The translations under genes were made by a program, and so were the position numbers. DNA of 64,000 nt. It comes from Thalassobaculaceae bacterium. Its GTDB lineage: Bacteria; Pseudomonadota; Alphaproteobacteria; Thalassobaculales; Thalassobaculaceae. A model generated the notes under the pieces. That model saw nothing but the letters and a program-made list of their open reading frames with translations, was not told where the DNA came from and searched no databases. Below are positions 39,001 to 54,662 of the stretch, piece after piece; within the stretch, counting starts at the first letter, position 1, and each line of letters starts with the position of its first letter. The stretch is from positions 788,616-852,615 of the forward strand of contig OZ245843.1 of assembly GCA_965228875.1 (NCBI GenBank). Reading direction: 5' to 3'.

Positions 39001-42166
<3,166 letters not shown>

Positions 42167-42167
<1 letters not shown>

Positions 42168-42577
42168 TGGCGAGAGACACGCTCGAGATCGTCCGGGAAT
42201 GGCATGAGGCCTTCGACGTTCCGGTGGCCGATGGTCCGACGCTTCCCGAGGCGCGCGCCGGGATGCGGCTGGCGATCCTGGAGGAGGAGATGGCGGAACT
42301 GCGCCAGGCGGTCGAGGCGGGCGATCTGGTCGAAGTGCTCGACGCGCTCTGCGACATTCAGTACGTGCTCGACGGCACGTTCCTGGAGTTCGGCATGCAC
42401 CGCATCAAGGCGGCGGCGATGGCCGAGGTCCATGCCTCGAACTTGTCCAAGCTCGGCACCGATGGCCGCCCGGTGCTTCGCGGCGACGGCAAGGTCCTGA
42501 AAGGACCGAACTTCATCCGTCCTTCCCTGGCGCGCCTGCTTTGTAGAGCAGATCACGATCAGATGGATTCGATCTGA
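42167..42577 (+). CDS. MazG-like/PRA-PH nucleoside triphosphate pyrophosphohydrolase
   Basis: 'LEEEMAEL..EVLDALCDIQYV..EVHASNLSK..DGKVLKGPN'. TGATG coupling to nrdF. Confidence 0.85.
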
Positions 42578-42707
42578 AGCGATCGCACTCCAGGCATCGG
42601 ACGCCGGAGGCGCGGAGGACCTGCCGTGGGGGACGCCGCTGTCTGGCGTGGGCGGACACCCCGGCTCTTCTCCCTCTCAACGTTCCGCCATGGCCGAGAG
42701 GCGAATT

Positions 42708-45700
42708 CTACTGCGCCGCGGCGAGCGGGAAGTCGCGCAGGCTCTTGCCGCCAGACTTGAACTCGGCTGTCTGCGTATATCCCTCCGACTTCGCGAGCCC
42801 CTCGACACGCGCCGGCACCCTCGAGCCGAGGTCGAACGCGGTGATCGTCTGACCGGACGCGCGCCGGCTGTCCAACTCACTGAGAATGGCGTGGGCGAAC
42901 ACGCCGTTCCGACCGTTGTATCCGTCCAGGGCCTCCTGGGTTTCGGACGACGCGGCCAGAATGAAGTAGCCGGTATCGTTGCCAATCTCGCCCGGGGTGT
43001 CGGTCGGCAGGGCTCCCGAGTGGCAGGTATCGAGAAAAACCATCGTGTTGGCCCCCAACAGACTGCCCAGCAATCCGACCAGCCGGTCCTGATCGATGGC
43101 CTGATCGGGAACCGCGTGGATCCCCTCAACGTTGTGACTGATGAAGTGGTACACGCCGCCATCAACAATGACGCCATGCCCGGCTATGTAGACAACCACA
43201 GTGTCGACCGGCTTGATCCGCTCTGCCACGCTGTCGAAGGCGCTCTGAATGCCCTCCGCCGTCGCTTCCTCGTCGAAGCGCGAGACCACCTGAACATCCT
43301 TGTAGAGCGGGGCACGGGACTGGCTGATCCGCTGCGATACCGAATCCGCATCGCGGCGGGCGAACGAAAGGTCCTGAATGTCGCCCTTGTAGATGTCGAT
43401 CCCCACCGCGATCACATAGAGCGTCGGTTCCGGCGGCGCTTCCGGCTCGGGTACCTTGAGGGTCAGCTCATGGGACTTGCCGAACACGCCGGACGTCGAA
43501 TAGGCCCTGACGTAAAGCTTGTTGAGGCCGGGCGACACGGTGACGACCTTTTCGACGGTCTGAACCTCGACGGCTTCGGTGTCCGCCGGCTTCTTGCGCG
43601 AGAGACCGCGGAACGCCTGGCCGGTTGTCCGGTCGTTCAGAAAAACGTCATACCGGGTCACGGGTTCGGATCCCGGCGTGATCTCGAAGACCAGACGGAC
43701 CCTGTCATGGCCTTCCGGCAGTAGCGACACGGCCGCGGGTGGTGCATCGGCGGACTGTTTTCGAGAAAGACCTCGACGCAACTGGTTGGCGGGATAGCAG
43801 GCGGTGTCGTCGCCCGTATCGGCTACGGCACAGAACCGGACAAGGGTGACGCTCGGCGCCAAGGCGATCGTGTTCTCGACTTCCGGGGCCGCATCCGGAC
43901 GCGCGACGTTGGCCGGTTGGACCAGCCCCACCCGATATCGCATCAGCTCGATATCGTAGAATCGCTTGTAGAGCTGGGAGAAGTCGATCCACCGGGCCAC
44001 CTGCTTGCGGCCACGGTTCAGGACATACCCCGCCAATTCCTGGCCGCCGCCGACCGAATGGGTGAAGTGGCCGTCCGGCGACCAAAGAATCCATCTTCGG
44101 CCGTCCGCGTGCACGAACAGAGACGCGATCTCCTCCAGTTCCTGCCCGGCGACGAGCGAGTACCATCGGATCGTACCGTCCCGGTGGGCGACCACCAGGC
44201 GTTTGCCGTCGGGGGTCGCGACGACGGCGGACGCCGCCGAGAGAACGACCGCCTCCCGCTGTGGCGTGCCGTCCGCCGCATACATCGAGAGTGAATAGTC
44301 GCTGCCGACGACAAAACCGTCATCCGTGAGTTCCGTCGCGCTTCTCGCGATGTCGCGGCGCGAGGACAGGCGGACCAGGCGGCCATCCAGTGTCATCTCC
44401 GGGCTGTCGCGCCAGCCCTCGAGCCTGGAGGGAGGAGCCGGCCTGGCGAAGCCCGGCGCCGGCTCCGGCGCGGCCTTCAGGGAAAGTGTCTTCGCGTCAA
44501 ACCGAAGGGTGCGATCGCGCCCTTCCGCCCGGAAGGAGAAGTCGACGACCGTTCCGTCTTCCGATGTCCTGAACACGCTCTCATACAGGCGTCGGAAGTC
44601 GGCCTTCGGGCTGGATATGCGGAAGAGAAGGCGGCCACTCTCGCCGGCGACGCGGCCCCATGCCGGATCGCCCGTCGCGAACAGGATGTCTCCCTCAGGC
44701 GTCGTCTCCAGGCGGGTGACCGCATCGCGGCTTACCGGTATGTCCGTGAAATCGTCGGGACGGTCGACGCTCCGCCAGCGCCGAACCACGATGTCGCGAT
44801 TGCGGTCGACGACGCCGCCGGACGCCCAGAGTTCGTCGCCCTTCGCGCCGACACGCCAGGCGACCGCGCTGAGGAAGAGTGTCGCCGTGCCCGGCGCATT
44901 CCCCGACAGCGACGTGGCGCGGCGCATGGACCCGACGTCAAGAATGTCCACCCTTGGCCGGTTGGCGTATGCGACCGCGAGTTGGGCACCGTTTGGAGAA
45001 AAACGGACCTGCGCCGGCCGGCCGTCGGGCGCGTTCCATTCCTTCACCGTCGAGAAGTCGTTGTCGTAGAGGCGAACGACCCCGTTTTCGGCCACGGCCG
45101 CCAGACGTCCATCTTGCGCGAATTCGACCCAGTTCGTCGCCGCGCCTAGATCGTCGGAGAACACGCGCTTGAGACGTTGGTCGATGACGGTGACGCCGCT
45201 TGGGTTGCGGGTATGGGCGGACGCGAGGAGGGTCGCCTTGCCATCGGCCGACGGTCGATGGGTATCGATGGCGTTGACGATACCGCCGGTCGCGACCCGG
45301 TCGATCGTCTCAAGGCCGGAGGAGAAGCGCACGAAGTAGAGCAGGTTCTGGCGCCGTCCCTGAGCGTCGGCGAAATAGCGACCACCGGTGAATCCGGAAG
45401 TGATGATATGGCTCTCGCCCGGCCAGTACTCGACGGTGTTGAGGACCCCTTCCTCGTCGGGGCCGACCGGTGTCCGGACGGTCTCCAGCAGCTCGCCCGT
45501 CGCCGCGTCCCAGAGACGCATGGTTTTGTCATCGGAGACGGTGGCAACGACGCCACCGTCCGCACGCACCTTGATGTCGCGGATCGTCGCCGTGTGGTTC
45601 CCCGTCTCGATCTGCAGTATCGGCGATGTCGGCAGCCCGTCGGCCCGCGCCGGATGGGAGAGAACGCCGGCGAGCATCGCGGCTGCGGCCAGGACGAGAG

Positions 45701-45767
45701 CGCAGACTCGAAGGTTCTTCCGGGGGGCGCCGTCCGGCCGGCGGCGAAATTTCGGCCCATACGACAT
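42708..45767 (-). CDS. Exported WD40 beta-propeller protein with C-terminal caspase-like (C14) domain
   Basis: Signal peptide ending ARA. WD repeats ('ATVSDDKTMRLWD', 'HRDGTIRWY'). C14 motifs 'VIAVGID', 'YIAGHG', 'FLDTCHSG', 'NGVFAHA'. Confidence 0.85.
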   Translation of the reverse strand: MSYGPKFRRRPDGAPRKNLRVCALVLAAAAMLAGVLSHPARADGLPTSPILQIETGNHTATIRDIKVRADGGVVATVSDDKTMRLWDAATGELLETVRTPVGPDEEGVLNTVEYWPGESHIITSGFTGGRYFADAQGRRQNLLYFVRFSSGLETIDRVATGGIVNAIDTHRPSADGKATLLASAHTRNPSGVTVIDQRLKRVFSDDLGAATNWVEFAQDGRLAAVAENGVVRLYDNDFSTVKEWNAPDGRPAQVRFSPNGAQLAVAYANRPRVDILDVGSMRRATSLSGNAPGTATLFLSAVAWRVGAKGDELWASGGVVDRNRDIVVRRWRSVDRPDDFTDIPVSRDAVTRLETTPEGDILFATGDPAWGRVAGESGRLLFRISSPKADFRRLYESVFRTSEDGTVVDFSFRAEGRDRTLRFDAKTLSLKAAPEPAPGFARPAPPSRLEGWRDSPEMTLDGRLVRLSSRRDIARSATELTDDGFVVGSDYSLSMYAADGTPQREAVVLSAASAVVATPDGKRLVVAHRDGTIRWYSLVAGQELEEIASLFVHADGRRWILWSPDGHFTHSVGGGQELAGYVLNRGRKQVARWIDFSQLYKRFYDIELMRYRVGLVQPANVARPDAAPEVENTIALAPSVTLVRFCAVADTGDDTACYPANQLRRGLSRKQSADAPPAAVSLLPEGHDRVRLVFEITPGSEPVTRYDVFLNDRTTGQAFRGLSRKKPADTEAVEVQTVEKVVTVSPGLNKLYVRAYSTSGVFGKSHELTLKVPEPEAPPEPTLYVIAVGIDIYKGDIQDLSFARRDADSVSQRISQSRAPLYKDVQVVSRFDEEATAEGIQSAFDSVAERIKPVDTVVVYIAGHGVIVDGGVYHFISHNVEGIHAVPDQAIDQDRLVGLLGSLLGANTMVFLDTCHSGALPTDTPGEIGNDTGYFILAASSETQEALDGYNGRNGVFAHAILSELDSRRASGQTITAFDLGSRVPARVEGLAKSEGYTQTAEFKSGGKSLRDFPLAAAQ

Positions 45768-45785
45768 CGTATCCTCCGCAGGTGG

Positions 45786-45812
45786 CCGCCCGACCGATCG
45801 CCGGTCGGGCGG
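45786..45812. repeat. Intra-operon 11-bp inverted repeat
   Basis: CCGCCCGACCG-ATCGC-CGGTCGGGCGG between the lipoprotein and WD40-caspase genes, with no U-tract. Confidence 0.6.
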
Positions 45813-45834
45813 ATGTTCGGACCGCTACCGTGGT

Positions 45835-46935
45835 TCAGCCCAGTGTGAACTGATCGCTGTCCGCCTCGGCCGTCGCCGTGGCTTCGTACACGCGATCCCG
45901 CTTCTCGACGTTGGCGAGGCTCACGTCCTGCAGGTCCTCGACCTTGTCGCGGTCGCCGTCAGGCAGGACGATCGGCTTGAGATCCTCGTCCTCGATCGGC
46001 TTTTCGGCGGGCGCGTCGGCGATGCGGGCATTCGCCTTCGGCGTCGGGCTGGATGCGATGGTGGCATCGACCGATCCCAGGAGGAACTCGGCGATGTAGG
46101 CCTCGCCGCCGCTCGGATTGGCGATCTTGAACCAGTCGCCTTCCTGACCGATGACCCGCACGACGGTGCCGGCGCTGAGTGTGCCGACTTTGGCGTGGTC
46201 CGTTCCCGGACCGCCACGCAGGTTCGACCCCTGGAGGACCTTCATCCTCGTGCCGGAAGTGGCTTCCGACGACGTCGCGGAGCGGGTCTTCGTGGGCTCG
46301 TCGACGACCAGCTGTCGCCCGCCATTGTCGGCTGCAATCTGGTTGTAGACGGCGGCATAGCCGTCGGTGCGCTTGCCGATATTCTTGGCGATCTTGTCGA
46401 GCTGTTCGACGTCCTCATCATACCGCTGCTTCACCAGGGTCATGCGTTCCTGGGCGACGCCGCGTGTGATCCGGCCGGCCTTGAGATCCGCCCGGATGGC
46501 GGCGGCCTCTCCGGTCCGACAGTCCTTCAACGTGTCGAAACGGGTCAGAAGAAGATCGATGCGCTCGTTCTCCTCGCGCACGTTCTTGATCGCGGCGTCC
46601 GTAAGCTGGACCGGATCGGAATACTTTTCCTGCAGATCGTACAGCAGAGTGCCCGCAAGCGCCGCGGCGGCTCCGATCAGGCCGCCCTTGAGGGCGTTCT
46701 TGCCGGTCGCTGCGGCAATCAGTGCTCCACCGGCGGCACCGATCAGAACGTTGCGCAGCACCTCGGTCTCGAACGTGTTTCCCGTGCTGTCGAGTGCCGC
46801 CCGCTGGGTGTAACACACGTCCGTCTTGTCGCTGAGGTACCCGCCCGGAAGCACACTTCCGATATTGGTCGTCTGACACGCGGCAAGCACGATCACCATG
46901 CTCAGCGCCGTGCCTTTCTTCAGAGTTCTCTTCAT
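45835..46935 (-). CDS. Lipoprotein with glycine-zipper, coiled-coil and bacterial SH3 (SH3b) domain
   Basis: Lipobox LAAC. Glycine zipper 'IGAAGGALIAAATG..GGLIGAAAALAG'. SH3b 'NLRGGPGTDHAKVGTL..GDWFKI..AYI'. Confidence 0.75.
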   Translation of the reverse strand: MKRTLKKGTALSMVIVLAACQTTNIGSVLPGGYLSDKTDVCYTQRAALDSTGNTFETEVLRNVLIGAAGGALIAAATGKNALKGGLIGAAAALAGTLLYDLQEKYSDPVQLTDAAIKNVREENERIDLLLTRFDTLKDCRTGEAAAIRADLKAGRITRGVAQERMTLVKQRYDEDVEQLDKIAKNIGKRTDGYAAVYNQIAADNGGRQLVVDEPTKTRSATSSEATSGTRMKVLQGSNLRGGPGTDHAKVGTLSAGTVVRVIGQEGDWFKIANPSGGEAYIAEFLLGSVDATIASSPTPKANARIADAPAEKPIEDEDLKPIVLPDGDRDKVEDLQDVSLANVEKRDRVYEATATAEADSDQFTLG

Positions 46936-46999
46936 GATCCTGTCCCCTCTACGCTCCCGTTAGGGAATTGAATGGTTTCGCCACTGTTCTACCACCCGA

Positions 47000-48304
47000 T
47001 CAGTTCGGGTCGGAGATGAAGCCCACGAGCAACGGCGTCGGAACTTTCGCGTGATGCAACGCGATGTGAAACGGTCGGTCGACAATGAACTCGAACGTGT
47101 CGGTGTTGATGGAACGGAGGCTGAGGATTGCCGTCGCCGCGGATGCCGTTGTCCCCCGCTCATCGACAGCCAGATGGCTGCGCTGAACGATCTGGCTGAC
47201 CGCTGGTGGGAACGGGCCCCGTATTTCCTTGATGACGTCAGGATTGCCGAGCATTCCCGCGAGGCCGATCTCGGCCAGGATGTCCGTAAGGTCCATGTCG
47301 CCGCTCGCCGAGAACCGGGGGAGGGCGATGGTCCCCGAGGAGGACGGCATGGTTTCCTCGAAGTCGACCGTGAACAGCCATGACACAGCCTCGGCCCATG
47401 CGGCGTCCTGGTCGGCACCCTCGTTGGGAAGATAGATGAGGAGCGATAGCTCGGTGTCCTCGTAGAACAGGCGCGCCAGGTGGCCGTGCTCGGCAACGGC
47501 ATAGGGATAGCGTCCGCTCCGACGCATCATCGGGACGGTTTTCGATGCCCCGTCCTCGCCCGTGAACGACTGTTCCGTCGTCTCCGCCTTGGCGAACGGG
47601 CGCAGCCACGCGCCCTTGAAGTAGAACGCATTGGTTAGGAGCATCGTCGTCTGACCGGTGAGACGGTCGAGGATTGCCGGGATCGCCCCTTGTGTCTTGT
47701 CAGAGACCCAGTCGTTCACCTGTTTGAGCGCCTCCGGGGTTCCGAAATCGATGCTGGAGACCTCCCCGCGGTATTCCGATATCAGTCGCGTCGAGTACTC
47801 CGGCGAGATCGAGGAGGATTCCGGAAGCCAGAGAGCGTTGGCGAGAGTCAATCGACCCTTCTCGGTGACGGCATTGTCGTCCATCGCCGCGAGCGCTTCG
47901 TACGAGTGGCCGATGACCTCACCGATGTCGACCCGCCAGGTGTCGGACGCGGCCTCGCCGATCAGGGCAAGCGCGAGTTCGACACTGATCGGGGAGAGCA
48001 CGACGTTCCCGCTCCGGCTCTTCATCAGTGCGGAGTAGGCCCGCAGCCCGAGCGTTGCAGAGGGAGGCGCGACGACAACCGGCTTTTTGGTTTCAACGCT
48101 GAACTTGGAGCTGTCGTCGGTCGCCACCTGGGTGGGTGACCCGGTCGCCGTCTTGGCGGCCGCGATGGCCCGGGGCGCGTCCGGTCCGCTCGACAGGTCC
48201 GCAGACCAAGCCGCCGATGCGGCGACGACCATGACGGCGGCAGAAACCGATCCCAACAGCGCCCGGGTCACGGAAGCCGCGAAACCGGAAAGTGTTTCTG
48301 TCAT
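47000..48304 (-). CDS. Exported serpin (serine protease inhibitor family)
   Basis: 'NVVLSPISV', 'VNDWVSDKTQG', 'NAFYFKGAW', 'VPMM', 'LPRF', hinge 'VDERGTTASAAT', signature 'FIVDRPF'. Signal peptide present. Confidence 0.92.
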   Translation of the reverse strand: MTETLSGFAASVTRALLGSVSAAVMVVAASAAWSADLSSGPDAPRAIAAAKTATGSPTQVATDDSSKFSVETKKPVVVAPPSATLGLRAYSALMKSRSGNVVLSPISVELALALIGEAASDTWRVDIGEVIGHSYEALAAMDDNAVTEKGRLTLANALWLPESSSISPEYSTRLISEYRGEVSSIDFGTPEALKQVNDWVSDKTQGAIPAILDRLTGQTTMLLTNAFYFKGAWLRPFAKAETTEQSFTGEDGASKTVPMMRRSGRYPYAVAEHGHLARLFYEDTELSLLIYLPNEGADQDAAWAEAVSWLFTVDFEETMPSSSGTIALPRFSASGDMDLTDILAEIGLAGMLGNPDVIKEIRGPFPPAVSQIVQRSHLAVDERGTTASAATAILSLRSINTDTFEFIVDRPFHIALHHAKVPTPLLVGFISDPN

Positions 48305-48362
48305 TGGCGCATCCTCGCTCTTAGCGGTTCCATCCGGGTTTCGCGGCGGCCCATAGTCAGCC

Positions 48363-50699
48363 TCACTCCACAATCCGGTAGTTCGTCTGACCCATCGACC
48401 AACGGCCGCGCCGCACGGTCGCACCGGCGCCGACTGTGGGTTTGCGCAGCTCCGAGGCCAGCTTGTCGACGAAGGCCTTCGGTCCGGCAATCTGCAGTAC
48501 GTTGTCGAGAAGCTGCTGATCCAGTGGAGCTTCCGAGGCGACCGCCACCAACAGGTACTCGCCGGCGGGCGGCTGTACCTGAAACCACTCGTATCCCGTC
48601 TCCACCACGTCGGGCACCACCACCGGCCGGCCGCCCCGGATCTCGTACTCTTCGAGGTAGGCGTCGGGGTTGGGCAGAATCCGGCTGACACTCCCCGAGG
48701 GGGCGACCTCGAATAGGGTGAAGTGGCCCCCGATCTCGGAATCGACGCGGATACGAATGCGTGAGCCGACACGACGCTCCGTGCCCGGCTCCACCGTGAT
48801 ATCCAGCCGCGCGCCGTTCACCGGATTGAGGGCACCGCCCACACCGCTCCCGGCGTCGCCGACCGGTGCGCCGGTAAGGACCTCGGCCGTCATGATCGAC
48901 GCCGGCCCTTCAAGGCTCGGCGTCAGCCCGAGGACGCAGTAATCCGGGTTGCGTTTGCAGTACGCCTCGGACTCCGCCGTGACATGGTCGAGCAGCTCCG
49001 CATGGGTGACCTTGCCGTCCTGGTTTCCGTCCGCCTTCAGATCGGCGATGCCGGCGATGAACCGGCTCGTGAAGACGCCACGAGGTTCCGGCGACTCCAG
49101 GTCGACCAGCGCCACCTGGCTCGGGCTGACCGCTGTCCACGTCGAGACGTTGCCGTCCAGCGCCTCGAAGGCCCTGGACAGCTGCGCCTGGCGCACGGAG
49201 CCGCGGGGCAGCGGCAGTTTGGCCTTGGAGAAGCCGCCGGAAGGCTGACGTTTGAACCGGGTTGACGGTCCGAAGGACAGCGACCGCGTCATCGTTCCCG
49301 AATGACAGCTGTCCACGACGATGGTGATCTTGCGATCCGGCATGCGTTTCAGAATGTCGCGGATCTCGTCGTCGCGAATGATGTTGTCGACCGTGCCGTC
49401 GGCTTTCGGCACGGCGTCATGGGGAATGAGCACCTCATCCAGACCATCCTCCTCGTCGCCGTTCTGGTCGGGCACATAGAACCCGTGTCCGGAATACGAG
49501 AAGAACACCCGACCACCGGGTTTCGAGCCCTGGACGAGCCAAGATTGCATGGCGTCTAGAATGCGGTCGCGGGTCGCGTCCGCGTCCTTGAGCACCTTGA
49601 TCTGTTCGGGCCTGAACCCGAAGGATCCGGTCAGCAGGCCGACCATGGCATCGGCATCGGCACCCGATCCGACCAGGTCGTTGGCTTCGTCCCGGTAGTC
49701 GTCGATACCGATGACGAGCGCCCGGTCGGTGTCCACCGGCGCGGGCGGCGGCGGTGGCGGCGCCGCGGCGTAGCGCGGGAGTTTCACGTACTGCTCGATC
49801 CAGTCGACGTACCGCGACACCCTGGTGAAGATTGCTGGCGACAGCCCGCAGCTCACCTCCTCGGTGCCGGCGCCCCAACTGACCACGCCGATCTGATATG
49901 GCGCGCCATCCGGACCGGGCGCGAACAGCGGCCCCCCCGAGTCTCCCTGGCAGGTGGTGCGCTGACCGCCCCAGTCTCCCGCGCAGATCTGGTTCTCCGT
50001 GACCAAGGAGGACAGGAAGTCCGAAAATCTTCGCGTGCACTCCCGCCTGGACACAATCGGCAGGTCGGCCTGCAGCAGGTACTCCGAGACGACATTCTCG
50101 CGCCCGGACGTCTTGCCCCAGCCGATCGCGGTGGCGCTCAGGCCGGGGCGCTCGACCGCCTCGACGATGCCGCCGGCCGCCAGTTTCACAACCGGCAGGT
50201 CGATCGGACGTTTCAGCTCGATCAACGCAATGTCGTCGAGAATCTTGGGTTTGGGCTTGGTCGTCGTGGCCCGGATATATCCCGAATGGGCTATGATCCG
50301 CTTCGCAAACCCCAGCTTTCCATAGATCTGCGGTTCGCCGGGCCCAAGGAGAGCCGGCATGCGCGTATGGCCGGCCTGCACGACCACGACCGTATTTCCG
50401 TCATTCGGGTCGGTCACCCGCCCGTTGTCGTCGACGACGCAGTGCGCTGCGGTGAGGATCCAGCTTCGATCGATGAGAGTGCCACCGCAGGCGGTTCCCG
50501 CGGCGAACACGTACACCTGAAACGGCCATGCGCCGGGCCGCGCCTGAACGCCGCCGACAATCCGCGAACCACCGGCTTTCACAGTAGGGCGCTCGGTCGG
50601 GGTAACGAACGTGTCGAAGGTTTGAGCGCCCGCGTCGACGGCGGACACCAGCAGACCACTGGCAAGCAAGACAATCGTGAGCAGGCCTGACCTCAGCAC
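48363..50699 (-). CDS. Exported S1 (chymotrypsin-fold) serine protease - caspase-like C14 - DUF4384-like fusion
   Basis: 'R|IVGG', 'CGGTLI..TAAHC', 'DDIAL', 'CQGDSGGP', poly-Pro linker, then 'ALVIGID', 'YSGHG', 'VDSCHSG', and a C-terminal beta domain. GTG start overlaps the upstream stop. Confidence 0.88.
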   Translation of the reverse strand: MLRSGLLTIVLLASGLLVSAVDAGAQTFDTFVTPTERPTVKAGGSRIVGGVQARPGAWPFQVYVFAAGTACGGTLIDRSWILTAAHCVVDDNGRVTDPNDGNTVVVVQAGHTRMPALLGPGEPQIYGKLGFAKRIIAHSGYIRATTTKPKPKILDDIALIELKRPIDLPVVKLAAGGIVEAVERPGLSATAIGWGKTSGRENVVSEYLLQADLPIVSRRECTRRFSDFLSSLVTENQICAGDWGGQRTTCQGDSGGPLFAPGPDGAPYQIGVVSWGAGTEEVSCGLSPAIFTRVSRYVDWIEQYVKLPRYAAAPPPPPPAPVDTDRALVIGIDDYRDEANDLVGSGADADAMVGLLTGSFGFRPEQIKVLKDADATRDRILDAMQSWLVQGSKPGGRVFFSYSGHGFYVPDQNGDEEDGLDEVLIPHDAVPKADGTVDNIIRDDEIRDILKRMPDRKITIVVDSCHSGTMTRSLSFGPSTRFKRQPSGGFSKAKLPLPRGSVRQAQLSRAFEALDGNVSTWTAVSPSQVALVDLESPEPRGVFTSRFIAGIADLKADGNQDGKVTHAELLDHVTAESEAYCKRNPDYCVLGLTPSLEGPASIMTAEVLTGAPVGDAGSGVGGALNPVNGARLDITVEPGTERRVGSRIRIRVDSEIGGHFTLFEVAPSGSVSRILPNPDAYLEEYEIRGGRPVVVPDVVETGYEWFQVQPPAGEYLLVAVASEAPLDQQLLDNVLQIAGPKAFVDKLASELRKPTVGAGATVRRGRWSMGQTNYRIVE

Positions 50700-52339
50700 G
50701 CCACCGTCTCCCCGTTGCAGCTGTAGAAGGACAGCAGTCCCAACCGGTGCGGGACGCCGCTCAGCCATTTTCTGAAAGCCTGAGGCACGTCCAGAGGCCG
50801 GACCTGTCCGTCCATCGCGCTCAGTTCCGCAACAAGCTGCGCCGGGTGGGTCTCGGTTGTCAGCGCCACGAGCAGATCGGCTCCGAAAGGTCCCGAGACG
50901 TTTATGCCGGCGAGTTCGAAAGGGCTCTCGGGGTCGCGTGGACCGGCCTCTCCCGAGCTCAGGGGATAGAGAAACTGGACGGTCCCGTCGTTCGCCAGAT
51001 TGACCAGGGTGAGGTAGGGATACCCGAGGTCGCCGACCTCGATCGTCACCACCTCGCCCTCGCGATAGATGGATTTGCCCGGACTGACAGAGATGTCCAG
51101 GGAATGGGTCTCCCCCATCGCCGACAACCGTGAGCGCGCCCGGAACTTGTCGACCACTCCCTGGAGCGCGTCGGCCGGAATCTCCTGGGCGACGACGGTG
51201 TCGATGCCGCTGACCACCTCTCGCTTTTCGGCGTCCCAGACGATGTCCGGGGTGTCGTGCACGTCCACGATCCGGGCGCCCTCGAGGCCGGGCGGCGTGG
51301 TGCCGGGAACGCCCAGGACCGCGACCCGGATATTGCGGTCGGGCGGTGGAGCGACGACCGCCGGTCGACCATGGGCATAGAGCGTGCGTTCCGCGCCGTC
51401 ATCCGCCGAGACGATATTCGGGATCTGCGCCCCCTGCGTCTCGAAGTTGATGTTGCGCAGGACGTACCGTTTCATCTCCGCAAGCTGGATACGGCCGTCG
51501 CCGTCGGTGTCGGCCGCCCCCCGCAAACCGCGCGAGAAGAAGTAGCTCATGGCTCCCCGTGGGACCGCCTGACCGTCCGTGTCGGGCAAGGGGATTTCGG
51601 GAACGAGTTGATCGTCGAGAACGGCACCGAAGGAGATCAGGTTGCTTGGAAACGCCTCCGCCGTCTCCGCCGCCGCGGGGGCATCGAGGCCGGCGAAGAG
51701 ATCGTCTGTCTCTGTGCTTGAGAGCAGATCGCCCTCGATCTTGACGCCTGAAAACCGGTACCGGGGCCTTACCCGCCGATCGACACTCCTGAACGTGGTT
51801 CCGGAGTGGCACGCATCGATCACCAGGACCACCTGCACGTCCCGCTCGGCGGCCTTGCGCACGAAAGCATCGATCTCGTCGTCGAGTATGAACTCGCTGC
51901 GGCCAGCGTCCGCCTTGCCGAAGGCGTGCAGCGGCAGAAACTCGTCGTAGCCATCCTCCTCCGCCGATGAGGCCGGGGCTTCGGCCTGCATCCCGTGACC
52001 CGCATAGGTGAGGAAGACGGTATCACCCGGTCCCGACCGTTCGAGGGCGCCGTTCCAGGCTGCGATGACGGCATCGCGGCGGGCCTCGCCATCCAGCAGT
52101 ACCGTCACATCGGTCATCCCGATGGCTCGGAACGTCGTCTCGAGATCGCGGGCGTCGTTCACGGCGCCACCGAGGTCGGAGAGGATGCCGTCCGGATCGA
52201 GATAGTCGTCGATGCCGACGACGACCGCGCGCCATTGCGTCTCGACGGACGCGGCGACGGTGGCGGTCCACGCGAGCAGAAGACAGGCCGCAATCCCCAG
52301 GACAGCTGCGGTGGCTTGACTAGGACCCGTTGCACGCAT
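50693..52339 (-). CDS. Exported caspase-like (C14, meta/orthocaspase) protease with DUF4384-like C-terminus
   Basis: Signal peptide. 'AVVVGID', 'LGGAVNDA', 'YAGHG', 'IDACHSG'. C-terminal 'YLTLVNLANDGTVQFLYP..GPFGAD'. Confidence 0.87.
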   Translation of the reverse strand: MRATGPSQATAAVLGIAACLLLAWTATVAASVETQWRAVVVGIDDYLDPDGILSDLGGAVNDARDLETTFRAIGMTDVTVLLDGEARRDAVIAAWNGALERSGPGDTVFLTYAGHGMQAEAPASSAEEDGYDEFLPLHAFGKADAGRSEFILDDEIDAFVRKAAERDVQVVLVIDACHSGTTFRSVDRRVRPRYRFSGVKIEGDLLSSTETDDLFAGLDAPAAAETAEAFPSNLISFGAVLDDQLVPEIPLPDTDGQAVPRGAMSYFFSRGLRGAADTDGDGRIQLAEMKRYVLRNINFETQGAQIPNIVSADDGAERTLYAHGRPAVVAPPPDRNIRVAVLGVPGTTPPGLEGARIVDVHDTPDIVWDAEKREVVSGIDTVVAQEIPADALQGVVDKFRARSRLSAMGETHSLDISVSPGKSIYREGEVVTIEVGDLGYPYLTLVNLANDGTVQFLYPLSSGEAGPRDPESPFELAGINVSGPFGADLLVALTTETHPAQLVAELSAMDGQVRPLDVPQAFRKWLSGVPHRLGLLSFYSCNGETVAC

Positions 52340-53327
52340 TGTCGTACCGCCCGCTCTCCTGGTTGCCTTGTCCGTAGTAGACCTCGACGCGCCGATTGAT
52401 CCGCCAACGCTCCTCCTGTGTGAACCGGTCGGGATTGTCGATGTTCACCGGAATGCGTTCGCCGCACCAAAGCGCGCGGATCGTTCCGGCGAATCCGTTC
52501 TGCTGGAGGTAGGTCCGGATCCGGGTGGCCCGGCGGCCGGACAGGTCGAGGTTGTAGGCGTCGTCGCCGCGTTCGTCGGTGTGCCCGATGATCGTGATCT
52601 CGTTCGGGCTCTCGCGCCGCAGGATCGGGAGCAACCGCTCCGCCGTCACGCGACCCTGCTGGTCAAACTCGTCGGACCCGGTGACGAACGTGATCTGTGG
52701 CGTCTTCTTCGGTACCCCGATCCCCCGGACGCTTGGCGCGAAATAGGCGGCGGTGCCGCCTCCGCGCGTCGTCGGCTCGACCGGGATCTCGGTGAGAACC
52801 AGCGCCTCTGATGCCGCAGCATGAACCGCGTGGATGGTCTCGGCCGAGGGCGCCTTGGCGGTGTAGCCGGTATGCTCCATAAGGTTGAGCGCCTGGAAAT
52901 AGTGTCGCGTTGCGGCGTCGTAGCGTTTCAGGTCCATCGCGAGCGAGCCGAGCTGAGCGCGCATTTCCCAGTGATCGGCATAGGGGAGGTACTCTTCGAC
53001 TTCGCGATAGAGGGCGTCGATTTCGGCTCCCCGCTGGCGCTCGACGCCAGCGATCCGGGCTACGAGGAGACCGAGGTGAGAGCGCGCCGCGATGCGATTC
53101 TTCGGGGGACAGAACACATCGATATCAGTGATCAGCCCGCGGGCGGCGGCACTGTCGTGGGCTTTCAGGCTCTGCGCGAAACTGGTGATGAGGGAGCGAC
53201 AGTTGTTCGCGTCGCCGGCGGTATCGCCTGCTGCCGGACCCGCCAATGCGATCCCAAATACCGCGGCGATCCCGAGGCCGGGTCCGATTAGCCGTTGCCG
53301 CATACTTACGCCTGATCTCCGCGTCAT
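52320..53327 (-). CDS. Exported OmpA-family peptidoglycan-binding protein with helical/TPR-like N-terminus
   Basis: Signal peptide. TPR-like 'LGSLAMDLKRYDAATRHYFQAL'. OmpA C-terminal motifs 'IIGHTDERG..YNLDLSGRRA..NRRVE'. Alternative ATG at 53303. Confidence 0.85.
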   Translation of the reverse strand: MTRRSGVSMRQRLIGPGLGIAAVFGIALAGPAAGDTAGDANNCRSLITSFAQSLKAHDSAAARGLITDIDVFCPPKNRIAARSHLGLLVARIAGVERQRGAEIDALYREVEEYLPYADHWEMRAQLGSLAMDLKRYDAATRHYFQALNLMEHTGYTAKAPSAETIHAVHAAASEALVLTEIPVEPTTRGGGTAAYFAPSVRGIGVPKKTPQITFVTGSDEFDQQGRVTAERLLPILRRESPNEITIIGHTDERGDDAYNLDLSGRRATRIRTYLQQNGFAGTIRALWCGERIPVNIDNPDRFTQEERWRINRRVEVYYGQGNQESGRYDNACNGS

Positions 53328-53627
53328 CTCGCTTCGCCCCACCTTCGCCTCGCGTCCGCCACGCGTCGCGTACGGCCTAGCCTTGCCTCGAATTCATCAT
53401 CCGTCCAGGATGGAAATCAACCAAAACCCGAATCCTTGCGCCCTTGCGCTCCCGCCCATTGCAGGGCGCCGCCGGATTTGGTGGATGGACACTGTCGAGC
53501 CGGTCCTTGACGCAGGCGCAGCGATCCGGCGGGGCACCGTGCGACGTGCCGCGGACTCGACCGGGAGCGCGGTGGGGCCGAAAAGAGCTGACTTCCGGGG
53601 ACCGGCGGCGTGTCGGGCAGAGCCGGA

Positions 53628-54662
53628 TCAGCGTGCGACCGCGTGGCGCGGTACGACCGTCTCGGCTGCATCGGCAGGCGGTTCCATCTTCTCCGCGTGG
53701 TGACAGGCGACGGTGTGATCGGTATCGCCGATGGTCCGCAGGGCGGGGATGGCCCGGGCGCAGTCCGCGGTCGCCATCGGGCAGCGGGTGTGGAAGACGC
53801 AGCCCGTGGGTGGGTTCAGGGGGCTCGGCGGGTCGCCTTCGAGCAGGGCGCCACGGCGGCGGGCCCGGGGATCGAGCCGGGGGGCGGCGGCTATCAGCGC
53901 GCGCGTATAGGGGTGTCGCGGCGCCGAGAACACCTGGGCGGCGGGGCCGGTCTCGACCATGCGGCCGAGGTACATGACCACGACCCGGTCGCAGATGTGT
54001 CGCACGATCCCGAGATCGTGGGAGATGAACAGGTAGGTCAGGCGGTGGGCTTCCTGCAGGTCGAGCAGCAGGTTCACCACCTGGGCTTGGATCGACACGT
54101 CGAGGGCGGCAACGGCCTCGTCGCAGACGATGAAGCTCGGCGACACCGCCAGAGCACGGGCAATCACCGCGCGCTGCAGCTGGCCGCCGGACATCTGGTG
54201 TGGATAACGCGCCAGCATGTGGCGCTCGAGTCCGACGGACTGGAGCAGTTCATCCATTCTCTGTGGGCGGTCCGCAGCCTCGCCGATCTCGTGTACATCG
54301 AGGATCTCGCGGATCTGCGTGCCGATCGTCAGGCGCGGATTCAGGGCACCGAACGGGTTCTGGAAAATCATCTGCATCTGCTGACGCAACTGACGCCATT
54401 CGGTGCTGCCGCGCTCGGCGGAGACCGTCCGGCCGCGGAACCGGACCGTACCTCCGCTCGGGGCGAGTAGGCCGAGCACGAGCTTGCCGATCGTCGACTT
54501 GCCACAGCCGCTCTCGCCGACAAGGCCGAGGGTTTCCCCTTCGCGGACCTGGAAGGAGACGTCCTGGGCGGCCGTCACAATCCGCTTGGCGCCGAGAAAG
54601 GGGATCGACCGGCCGACCGGAAAACGCCGCGTGAGTTTGTGTACATCGACCAGGACTGTCAT
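53628..54662 (-). CDS. Oligopeptide/dipeptide-family ABC ATP-binding protein (OppF-like)
   Basis: GESGCGKS, MSGGQLQR, 'GCVFHTRCP'. Confidence 0.92.
   Translation of the reverse strand: MTVLVDVHKLTRRFPVGRSIPFLGAKRIVTAAQDVSFQVREGETLGLVGESGCGKSTIGKLVLGLLAPSGGTVRFRGRTVSAERGSTEWRQLRQQMQMIFQNPFGALNPRLTIGTQIREILDVHEIGEAADRPQRMDELLQSVGLERHMLARYPHQMSGGQLQRAVIARALAVSPSFIVCDEAVAALDVSIQAQVVNLLLDLQEAHRLTYLFISHDLGIVRHICDRVVVMYLGRMVETGPAAQVFSAPRHPYTRALIAAAPRLDPRARRRGALLEGDPPSPLNPPTGCVFHTRCPMATADCARAIPALRTIGDTDHTVACHHAEKMEPPADAAETVVPRHAVAR

Follow-up and report, generated by a model that had tools for sequence, protein, structure and literature searches.

The window analysed here, 64,000 nucleotides of contig OZ245843.1 (positions 788,616 to 852,615; GenBank assembly GCA_965228875.1) from a Thalassobaculaceae bacterium, carries at 48363-50699 of its minus strand a gene in which an S1A serine protease is fused to a metacaspase-like C14 cysteine peptidase and a DUF4384 domain. 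The predicted product is an exported (periplasmic or secreted) two-protease zymogen, placed by the family tree in an old subclade that lost Asp189 from the S1 pocket while keeping the Arg activation bond of the zymogen. Since this pocket lacks the canonical Arg-binding residue, the S1 domain is probably not Arg-specific and could probably not cut its own activation site with any efficiency. The reading favoured here, tentatively and at slightly less than an even call, is that the C14 peptidase activates the S1 domain, in cis or from the neighbouring gene.

Activation bond, specificity pocket and caspase-like domain

The activation site of the S1A zymogen is formed by R46 to G50 (R / IVGG, 50564-50550), with Ile47 as the N-terminus after cleavage, which agrees with a preliminary description of this DNA that had placed a GGSR / IVGG site at 50550-50564 behind a signal peptide and a pro-segment. 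The Pfam Trypsin profile (PF00089; E 2.8e-44, 152 bits against a cut-off of 20.6) is matched over its whole length, 1-220, by a region that begins exactly at Ile47 (residues 70-324 in an 801-aa reading of the open reading frame, ORF). The catalytic triad consists of His86 (50444-50442), Asp156 (50234-50232) and Ser254 (49940-49938); these three residues, together with D253 (Asp194) and I47 (Ile16), align with those of solved S1A enzymes and are conserved among homologues. Six cysteines of the domain (C71, C87, C221, C239, C250 and C284), presumably paired in disulfides, are invariant in 33 of 33 aligned rows and fit an oxidising, extracytoplasmic location. Because the Arg/Lys-Ile/Val junction, the triad, Asp194 and the six cysteines are all conserved across homologues, this anatomy is not a product of chance.

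The motif TTCQGDSGGP occupies 49958-49929, and its first residue, Thr248 (49958-49956), stands at position 189. A Thr in place of the Asp189 of trypsin had been proposed beforehand, and phmmer alignments to matriptase and plasmin bear it out by setting T248 on Asp189, G276 on Gly216 and A289 on Gly226; what needed correction is a six-base slip in the coordinates, as the 12-mer quoted with the proposal spans 49964-49929. The S1 pocket thus reads T189/T190/G216/A226 and not the Asp189/Gly216/Gly226 that defines the trypsin-like subgroup. In the portion of PMC6096847 that deals with granzyme H, the triplet Thr189-Gly216-Gly226 is read as chymotrypsin-like, and the earlier suggestion that the S1 domain is probably not trypsin-like gains from this resemblance.

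The C14 domain, said in the preliminary description to be intact and joined to the S1 domain by a poly-Pro linker, is indeed so (the linker takes up residues ~311-324). It matches Peptidase_C14 (PF00656) with an E of 3.7e-21 and 76.3 bits against a cut-off of 21.4, carries the His405 (49487-49485) and Cys465 (49307-49305) dyad within SGHG and DSCHSG motifs, and aligns to yeast metacaspase-1 (E 1.8e-20) with the acidic motif DGDEEDGLD kept. Its pocket residues Asp348 and Asp463, aligned with the yeast metacaspase and invariant in 33 of 33 rows, are equated with Asp95 and Asp211 of TbMC2 by motif position. A passage of PMC6426788 has the two acidic pocket residues of metacaspases accommodate a basic P1 residue, so that the C14 domain is predicted, as had been supposed, to be of the Arg/Lys type.

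A family-specific pair and candidate autoprocessing site, Thr471-Arg472 (Arg472 at 49286-49284), is located seven residues downstream of the catalytic Cys. Arg472 is found in 81 of 83 non-redundant rows and Thr471 in 76 of 83; the two rows missing the Arg, P0082 and P0140, both have a dyad that is dead by other substitutions. In 48 of the 83 rows, Thr-Arg provides P2-P1 at both the S1 activation site and this C14 loop site.

The activation bond across the family

Across 119 aligned relatives, the P1 residue of the activation site is Arg in 115 and Lys in three, with a gap in one; Ser195, Asp194 and the caspase Cys are present in 119/119, and the position of the caspase His is taken by His in 84, Gln in 34 and Arg in one. 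Asp189 is absent from 13 of 142 fusions, being replaced by T, S, G or A, and in these the P1 residue is Arg in 12 and Lys in one. A FastTree phylogeny of the 83 non-redundant rows (rows shorter than 700 residues or more than 85% identical to a kept row were dropped) puts the non-Asp189 fusions in four places. One of these is a clade of 10 rows, the window protein included, with an SH-like support of 90 and a summed branch length of ~8.7 changes per column (the sum of the branch lengths as printed). Its members differ at positions 189 (T, S, G, A) and 226 (A, T, N, G, S) and agree at P1, Ile16, Asp194 and the triad, which argues that selection has long kept an Arg activation bond in the absence of the canonical Arg-binding residue. 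The window subclade is further distinguished by a long conserved propeptide, LVHPxxRPVLPxGGxR, whereas the propeptides of the Asp189 members are short and variable.

These counts settle parts of the preliminary description in different ways. The need for an Arg-specific caspase, which it had put forward, draws strength from the R or K kept at P1 by 13/13 non-Asp189 members; a strictly in-cis version of that need is contradicted by the relative P0082, discussed below. The label "eukaryote-style" for the site has to be dropped: R or K stands at P1 in 50 of 78 bacterial S1A loci of a background sample, itself biased because it was ranked by match to a query that includes C14, and the site is therefore no unusual eukaryotic trait.

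The two proteases also occur as separate genes. In Shimia aestuarii (L065), a trypsin-family gene with Thr189 and SGSK / VIGG is overlapped at its start by a C14 gene; L008 and L083 hold C14-then-S1 pairs with Thr189 and an Arg at P1, and L039 holds such a pair with Asp189. Fusions in the opposite order (C14 then S1), considered for L008, L039, L065 and L083, were rejected, as these are separate adjacent genes. The tree of the S1 domain alone is too poorly resolved to tell whether L008, L065 and L083 lost Asp189 independently of the window clade. Five S1 genes of the background sample are of the non-Asp189 kind and three of them have a C14 gene nearby; of the other two, L058 has Asn at P1 and no such gene, and L079, taken up below, has none among the ORFs scanned. 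The Shimia row (L065:8381-13043) comprises a patatin-like phospholipase, a 706-aa C14 protein and the Thr189 trypsin-family gene, the last two overlapping, and ~6 kb upstream the opposite strand carries another C14 gene.

Gene structure and accessory domains

The fusion ORF translates as 778 codons without an internal stop (Table 1). The GTG at 50699 was taken as the start because a Shine-Dalgarno-like GGGGAG lies ~10 nt upstream of it, because in the string GTGCTGA it shares bases with the stop codon of the C14 gene upstream, and because the identical sequence of database cluster P0002 is likewise 778 aa long.

Table 1. Features of the fusion gene and of its gene cluster, in window coordinates
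Feature	Positions	Strand	Description
Fusion gene	48363..50699	-	778 aa: signal peptide, propeptide, S1A, poly-Pro linker, C14, DUF4384
Signal peptide	50622..50699	-	Residues ~1-26; basic n-region, hydrophobic core, AVDAGA / Q; read from sequence; pLDDT <50
Propeptide	50562..50621	-	Residues 27-46 (20 residues), ends GGSR46; Arg46 at 50564-50562
S1A domain	49770..50561	-	Residues 47-310; PF00089; pLDDT mostly 75-95
Ala/Pro-rich linker	49728..49769	-	Residues ~311-324; AAAPPPPPPAP
Metacaspase-like C14 domain	48894..49727	-	Residues 325-602; PF00656
Disordered Arg/Lys-rich stretch after catalytic Cys	49194..49304	-	Residues 466-502; pLDDT <50
DUF4384 beta-sandwich	48366..48836	-	Residues 622-778; PF14326, E 3.9e-11, 43.3 bits (cut-off 27)
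OmpA-like peptidoglycan-binding protein	52320..53342	-	First cluster gene; PF00691; NCBIfam OmpA/Pal-type matches under cut-offs
Paralogous secreted C14 protein	50693..52339	-	548 aa; intact His-Cys dyad; divergent, weakly DUF4384-like C-terminus
Secreted serpin	47000..48304	-	434 aa; PF00079, E 1.1e-69, 235.8 bits
Lipoprotein with bacterial SH3 domain	45835..46935	-	Beside fusion in window genome only
Secreted WD40-C14 protein	42708..45767	-	1019 aa; N-terminal WD40 beta-propeller, C-terminal C14 with intact dyad; third cluster C14

The full-length AlphaFold model of the fusion has a mean pLDDT of 78.6, and its only long stretches with pLDDT <50, residues 1-48 and 466-502, are the two proposed cleavage regions. 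The DUF4384 model (pLDDT 91.4) is a beta-sandwich with a C-terminal helical hairpin; Foldseek found no match to it in the PDB at E <=0.001, and VIA-align gave middling matches, the best (Z 9.0, rmsd 3.7, 125 aligned) to an S-layer protein and another (Z 8.8, rmsd 1.8, 92 aligned) to a macroglobulin domain of complement C5. These may reflect just a common beta-sandwich. The neighbours at Z 8-9 include macroglobulin domains of complement C3/C4/C5 and of alpha-2-macroglobulins, which are protease-trap proteins.

An operon with paired caspase-like genes

The fusion is one of six minus-strand genes between nrdEF and an oligopeptide ABC transporter, in the order OmpA-like, 548-aa C14, fusion, serpin, SH3 lipoprotein and WD40-C14, and all six proteins start with a signal-peptide-like sequence, as read from their sequences. 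The WD40-C14 gene and the SH3 lipoprotein join the cluster in the window genome only. The four-gene order OmpA-like / C14 / fusion / serpin was found by tblastn with the window proteins in L006 (Rhizobium lusitanum) and L161 (G513), both of Rhizobium type, and in L042 (Minwuia sp.), L094 and L095, of Minwuia type; in the proposed core module, the OmpA-like protein would be an anchor and the C14 protein a C14-DUF4384 paralogue of the S1A-C14-DUF4384 fusion, with the serpin as fourth member. At the fusion locus L007, the serpin is absent within the flanks. On plasmid pRetMIM1d of Rhizobium etli Mim1 (L140, NC_021908.1:152972-162758), a caspase family protein, a trypsin-like serine protease and a serpin are annotated in succession. 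On either side of this plasmid core lie a 653-aa DUF4384 protein and an 801-aa Ser/Thr kinase, an arrangement that hints at a connection of DUF4384 modules with transmembrane signalling.

The state of the C14 dyads differs between the operon types. In the Rhizobium type (L006, L161) the fusion is dead (Gln-Cys) and its C14 neighbour live (AGHG / DTCHAG); in the Minwuia type (L042, L094, L095) the fusion is live and the neighbour dead (AGAG / DTG(Y/H)); in the window neither is dead. Each of the 6 operons thus retains an intact C14 dyad in the fusion, in the neighbour or in both, and this reciprocal pattern of substitutions suggests a live/pseudo-enzyme C14 pair.

A scan of 42000-54000 for promoters and terminators returned 0 promoter-like and 4 terminator-like sites, numbers that shuffled sequence also reaches. 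When the DNA flanking nrdF was compared with same-genus genomes, only a short dispersed repeat matched. The spacer that separates nrdF from the end of the WD40-C14 gene holds an element of 35-50 nt (42544-42610) with at least 25 further copies in the genome, and many in the same-genus genome G444; this element looks like a dispersed repeat of the REP type.

The serpin and its reactive-centre loop

The serpin is the only one in the genome. Its reactive-centre loop extends over ~47069-47161, and the hinge, G-T-T-A-S-A-A-T, fits the small residues of the inhibitory type (Gly at P15, Thr at P14, Ala/Ser at P12-P9), with E382, G384 and T391 invariant. The distal part of the loop has a single invariant position, Arg397 (47116-47114), which stands 13 residues beyond the hinge Gly and precedes a Ser or Ala. 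The Arg is present in 11/11 serpins, namely in 7/7 aligned sequences, in L161 and in three close relatives, P0263 to P0265. P0263 and P0265 come from contigs equal in length to those of the Ser189 fusions P0003 and P0007, which suggests shared contigs; matched in this way, they indicate that the Arg bait is kept alongside S1 domains without Asp189.

Taking Arg397 as the P1 residue implies a loop one residue shorter than usual. The loop of CrmA, a caspase inhibitor, may be one residue shorter too, a point that a literature search did not confirm. Co-folding of the serpin with the C14 domain scored 0.37 against 0.00 for the best of 3 controls, the runs agreeing on at least 65% of contacts and the partners having pLDDT >=78; among solved complexes 116 of 157 pass the mark, among mismatched pairs 2 of 215, and scores of at most 0.60 are shared by 18 of the 157 solved complexes and both passing mismatches. 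The modelled complex gives the serpin-C14 pairing slight backing.

Proposed relay and alternative explanations

In the relay proposed here, the S1A domain would be made inactive, and a cut after Arg46 would let Ile47 pair with Asp194, as is the mechanism of the S1A family. The constant Arg-specific activity of the module is predicted to be that of the metacaspase-like C14 domain. This domain would autoprocess in its disordered loop, at Thr471-Arg472 or at a nearby Arg or Lys, and would then cut Arg46 / Ile47 in cis, between molecules or through the neighbouring paralogue, while the serpin, with its invariant loop Arg, would serve as a suicide-substrate brake on the Arg-specific protease and DUF4384 as a beta-sandwich binding module. 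With the activation bond tuned to the C14 peptidase, the S1 pocket of the window clade would have been free to drift away from trypsin-like specificity. The anatomy, residues, conservation and operon are observed; every cleavage event, and the direction of the relay, is put forward here as an inference from them.

Several observations weigh against this reading. Asp189 is present in 111 of the 119 relatives; the ancestral enzyme was therefore trypsin-like and R / IVGG an ancestral trypsin-compatible site, so the Arg at P1 may simply be inherited and served by any Arg-specific protease, and the notion that the S1 domain is unable to cut its own site fails as a rule for the family, most members of which could do so. 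P0082 combines Ala189 with a dead Arg-Cys dyad and keeps R / IVGG; a relay that works purely in cis is not compatible with this protein, and a live C14 neighbour would answer the case only hypothetically. L079, from Spirulina, has an S1 domain with S189/A226 and an Arg at P1, with no C14 in the five neighbouring ORFs scanned. A Glu conserved in the 220-loop insertion of the window subclade (GTEEVSC, GSENVSC, GSEAVPC, GTNEVSC) might bring back a preference for basic residues. The same genome encodes, ~83 kb off, a canonical secreted trypsin (R / IING, Asp189, Gly216, Gly226; PF00089 E 5.6e-39). In alignments to serpins with alpha-1-antitrypsin-type loops and to PAI-1, Arg397 falls at the canonical P2 and Ser/Ala at P1. 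The propeptide is undocked in the full-length model, and the operon evidence comes from three lineages only, the window included.

In one alternative, the S1 domain would still prefer Arg/Lys and activate itself, alone or between molecules, the 220-loop Glu or another acidic residue compensating for Asp189, with the C14 domain doing a separate job on shared substrates. The trypsin-like ancestral state of the family (Asp189 in 111/119) is in keeping with this, as are the Glu conserved in the loop insertion of P0001, P0003, P0004 and P0007 and the acidic residue found a few residues before Cys220 in 7 of 12 non-Asp189 rows; S1A enzymes with the charge at 226 instead of 189 do exist. However, no acidic residue is common to the non-Asp189 clade, the loops of P0005, P0125, P0127, P0136 and P0196 having none, positions 189 and 226 vary freely, and the Thr189-type pocket of granzyme H is described as chymotrypsin-like in the relevant part of PMC6096847. 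Self-activation would also leave unexplained the longer conserved propeptide and the presence of at least one live C14 per operon, and it is regarded as unlikely. Still less probable is activation by an unlinked Arg-specific protease, most simply the canonical trypsin at ~754 kb, itself self-activating at R / IING. That a full-length PF00089 gene with R / IING, Asp189, Gly216 and Gly226 exists in the same genome and that L079 pairs a non-Asp189 S1 domain and an Arg P1 with no C14 found nearby are both as this explanation would have it, but it accounts neither for the recurrent fusion or adjacency of S1 and C14, nor for the Arg-baited serpin kept in the operon, nor for the movement of the operon as a unit into distant genomes (the fusion being found in 0/62 other genomes of the order and 2/400 of the class), where an unlinked helper is not guaranteed in the new host.

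A reversed or parallel arrangement is equally improbable: the S1 domain would process the C14 loop, or both would act side by side, the C14 domain being an Arg-recognising, partly pseudo-enzymatic dimer partner and the serpin, with Ser/Ala as P1, a regulator of S1. The Ser/Ala after the Arg is indeed the canonical P1, and residues of small or medium size might fit a T189/A226 pocket; dead C14 copies have long been kept in the Gln-Cys clade, which points to a non-catalytic role of C14, and the family-wide Thr-Arg site of the C14 loop could be cut by Asp189 S1 domains. Yet a non-Asp189 S1 domain could not cut the Thr-Arg site of its own C14, a Ser/Ala P1 mismatches the trypsin-like S1 of the Asp189 operons, though their loop is the same, and Arg is the sole invariant residue of the distal loop. 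Activation of S1 by the C14 peptidase can also be extended to a self-contained extracytoplasmic cascade across catalytic classes, in which a C14 peptidase, possibly gated by Ca2+ and paired with a live or dead paralogue, would cut an Arg / Ile bond and so switch on a fused S1 zymogen of different specificity, and in which the serpin, with a shorter-loop Arg bait, would be a bacterial metacaspase inhibitor; this fuller version is less likely than not.

Beside these arguments, the ~753.2-755.0 kb region of the genome contains two tandem secreted S1A genes (L098/L101), of which the second is the canonical trypsin and the first carries KDSCHGDSGAP behind an extended N-terminal region rich in Gly and Ser.

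Distribution and earlier descriptions

The S1A-C14 architecture itself is not new and is already catalogued. A search for it, as the preliminary description had advised, did recover it, in a form present in databases and in print: among the best 120 of 2420 matches, the window protein included, 119 have both PF00089 and PF00656 and 118 have PF14326 too. NCBI RefSeq names such relatives 'trypsin-like serine protease' or 'peptidase C14'. Adding representatives at 50% identity brought further fusions and many C14-DUF4384 proteins without S1, and the 261 proteins collected were sorted by purpose-built domain HMMs into classes that include 143 fusions and 81 C14-DUF proteins. The fusion was found in 0/62 further genomes of the order, 10 of which share the genus, in 2/400 sampled genomes of the class and in 1/400 of the phylum. 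A pattern scan of contigs gave full-length fusions only in L006, L007 and L042, generic trypsins dominating the remainder. When metagenomes were scanned with the whole protein, 32 loci came up, each through the C14/DUF4384 part only, and no close relative of the non-Asp189 clade was among them. NCBIfam and PADLOC scans gave generic domain matches and no named family, the PADLOC matches being just generic 'caspase' and MotB-like domains, with no system-specific defence model.

The survey of Klemencic et al. 2019 (PMC6426788) described the Rhizobium form of the fusion, with an inactive caspase domain, and its passages on that form make no mention of the activation site, position 189 or the serpin. 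The replacement of the catalytic His by Gln in 34 of 119 relatives is confined to the Rhizobium type; the window protein, with His405, stands outside this Gln-Cys pseudo-orthocaspase clade. It shares with the Rhizobium fusions the three-domain architecture, an intact S1 triad, the acidic C14 pocket and the operon neighbours, and differs from them in a C14 domain that keeps His-Cys and is presumably active, in Thr189 instead of Asp189 in S1, and in a sequence identity of ~34%. Literature searches, the supplements of PMC6426788 apart, found no description of fusions with an intact His-Cys dyad, of the loss of Asp189 with Arg retained, of the serpin-containing operon or of the reciprocal live/dead C14 pattern, and a search listing gives no occurrence of 'trypsin' in the text of PMC3501461.

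Comparison with known systems

The operon offers a compact and testable system, with one C14 paralogue, one S1A-C14 fusion and one serpin, in which natural variants mimic mutants, Asp189 being kept or lost and the C14 domain live or dead in either gene. If the relay is true, it would provide a bacterial metacaspase with a physiological substrate and a bacterial serpin with a target, and would exemplify cross-class zymogen activation within one polypeptide; if it is false, the protein is one further member of a catalogued fusion family. Serpin-controlled zymogen cascades are characteristic of blood clotting in animals, of complement and of the immunity of insects, and to our knowledge most bacterial serpins and bacterial caspase homologues are without known partners. 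The self-contained cascade, if true, would be a prokaryotic counterpart of these eukaryotic zymogen-and-serpin cascades, and its live/dead C14 pairing can be likened to that of caspase-8 with cFLIP.

With orthocaspases and type I metacaspases (yeast Mca1/Yca1, PDB 4f6o, 7qp0), the C14 domain has in common the p20 core, the dyad, the acidic pocket and DGDEEDG(L/M)D; in contrast to these, the window protein is predicted to be exported, has S1A and DUF4384 fused to the C14 domain and carries its family-specific Thr-Arg site seven residues after the Cys. As for the serpin, inhibition of metacaspases by serpins is described, in the part of PMC10609998 concerned with these pairs, for AtSerpin1 with AtMC9 and AtMC1 and for CrSERPIN with CrMCA-I. 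The plant and algal pairs resemble the one proposed here in that a serpin is paired with an Arg/Lys-specific C14 peptidase, but they are eukaryotic and not operon-linked, whereas the window pairing is deduced from gene order, the loop Arg and a weak co-fold.

Two other systems offer parallels to the proposed relay. Chymotrypsinogen is activated by trypsin at Arg15 / Ile16 and has Ser189 in its own pocket; it is, like the S1 domain of the fusion, an S1A zymogen with a non-Arg pocket, an Arg / Ile bond and a separate Arg-specific activator, and differs in that the activator proposed here is a clan CD cysteine peptidase, bacterial, and encoded in the same or in the adjacent gene. In the staphylococcal cascade, aureolysin activates the serine protease SspA, which activates the cysteine protease SspB, and an inhibitor, SspC, is encoded in the operon. 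Like it, the relay proposed here would be a bacterial extracellular zymogen relay across catalytic classes with an inhibitor gene in the operon; the staphylococcal one is built from other families and runs in another direction, its components are separate proteins, and its inhibitor is a staphostatin and not a serpin.

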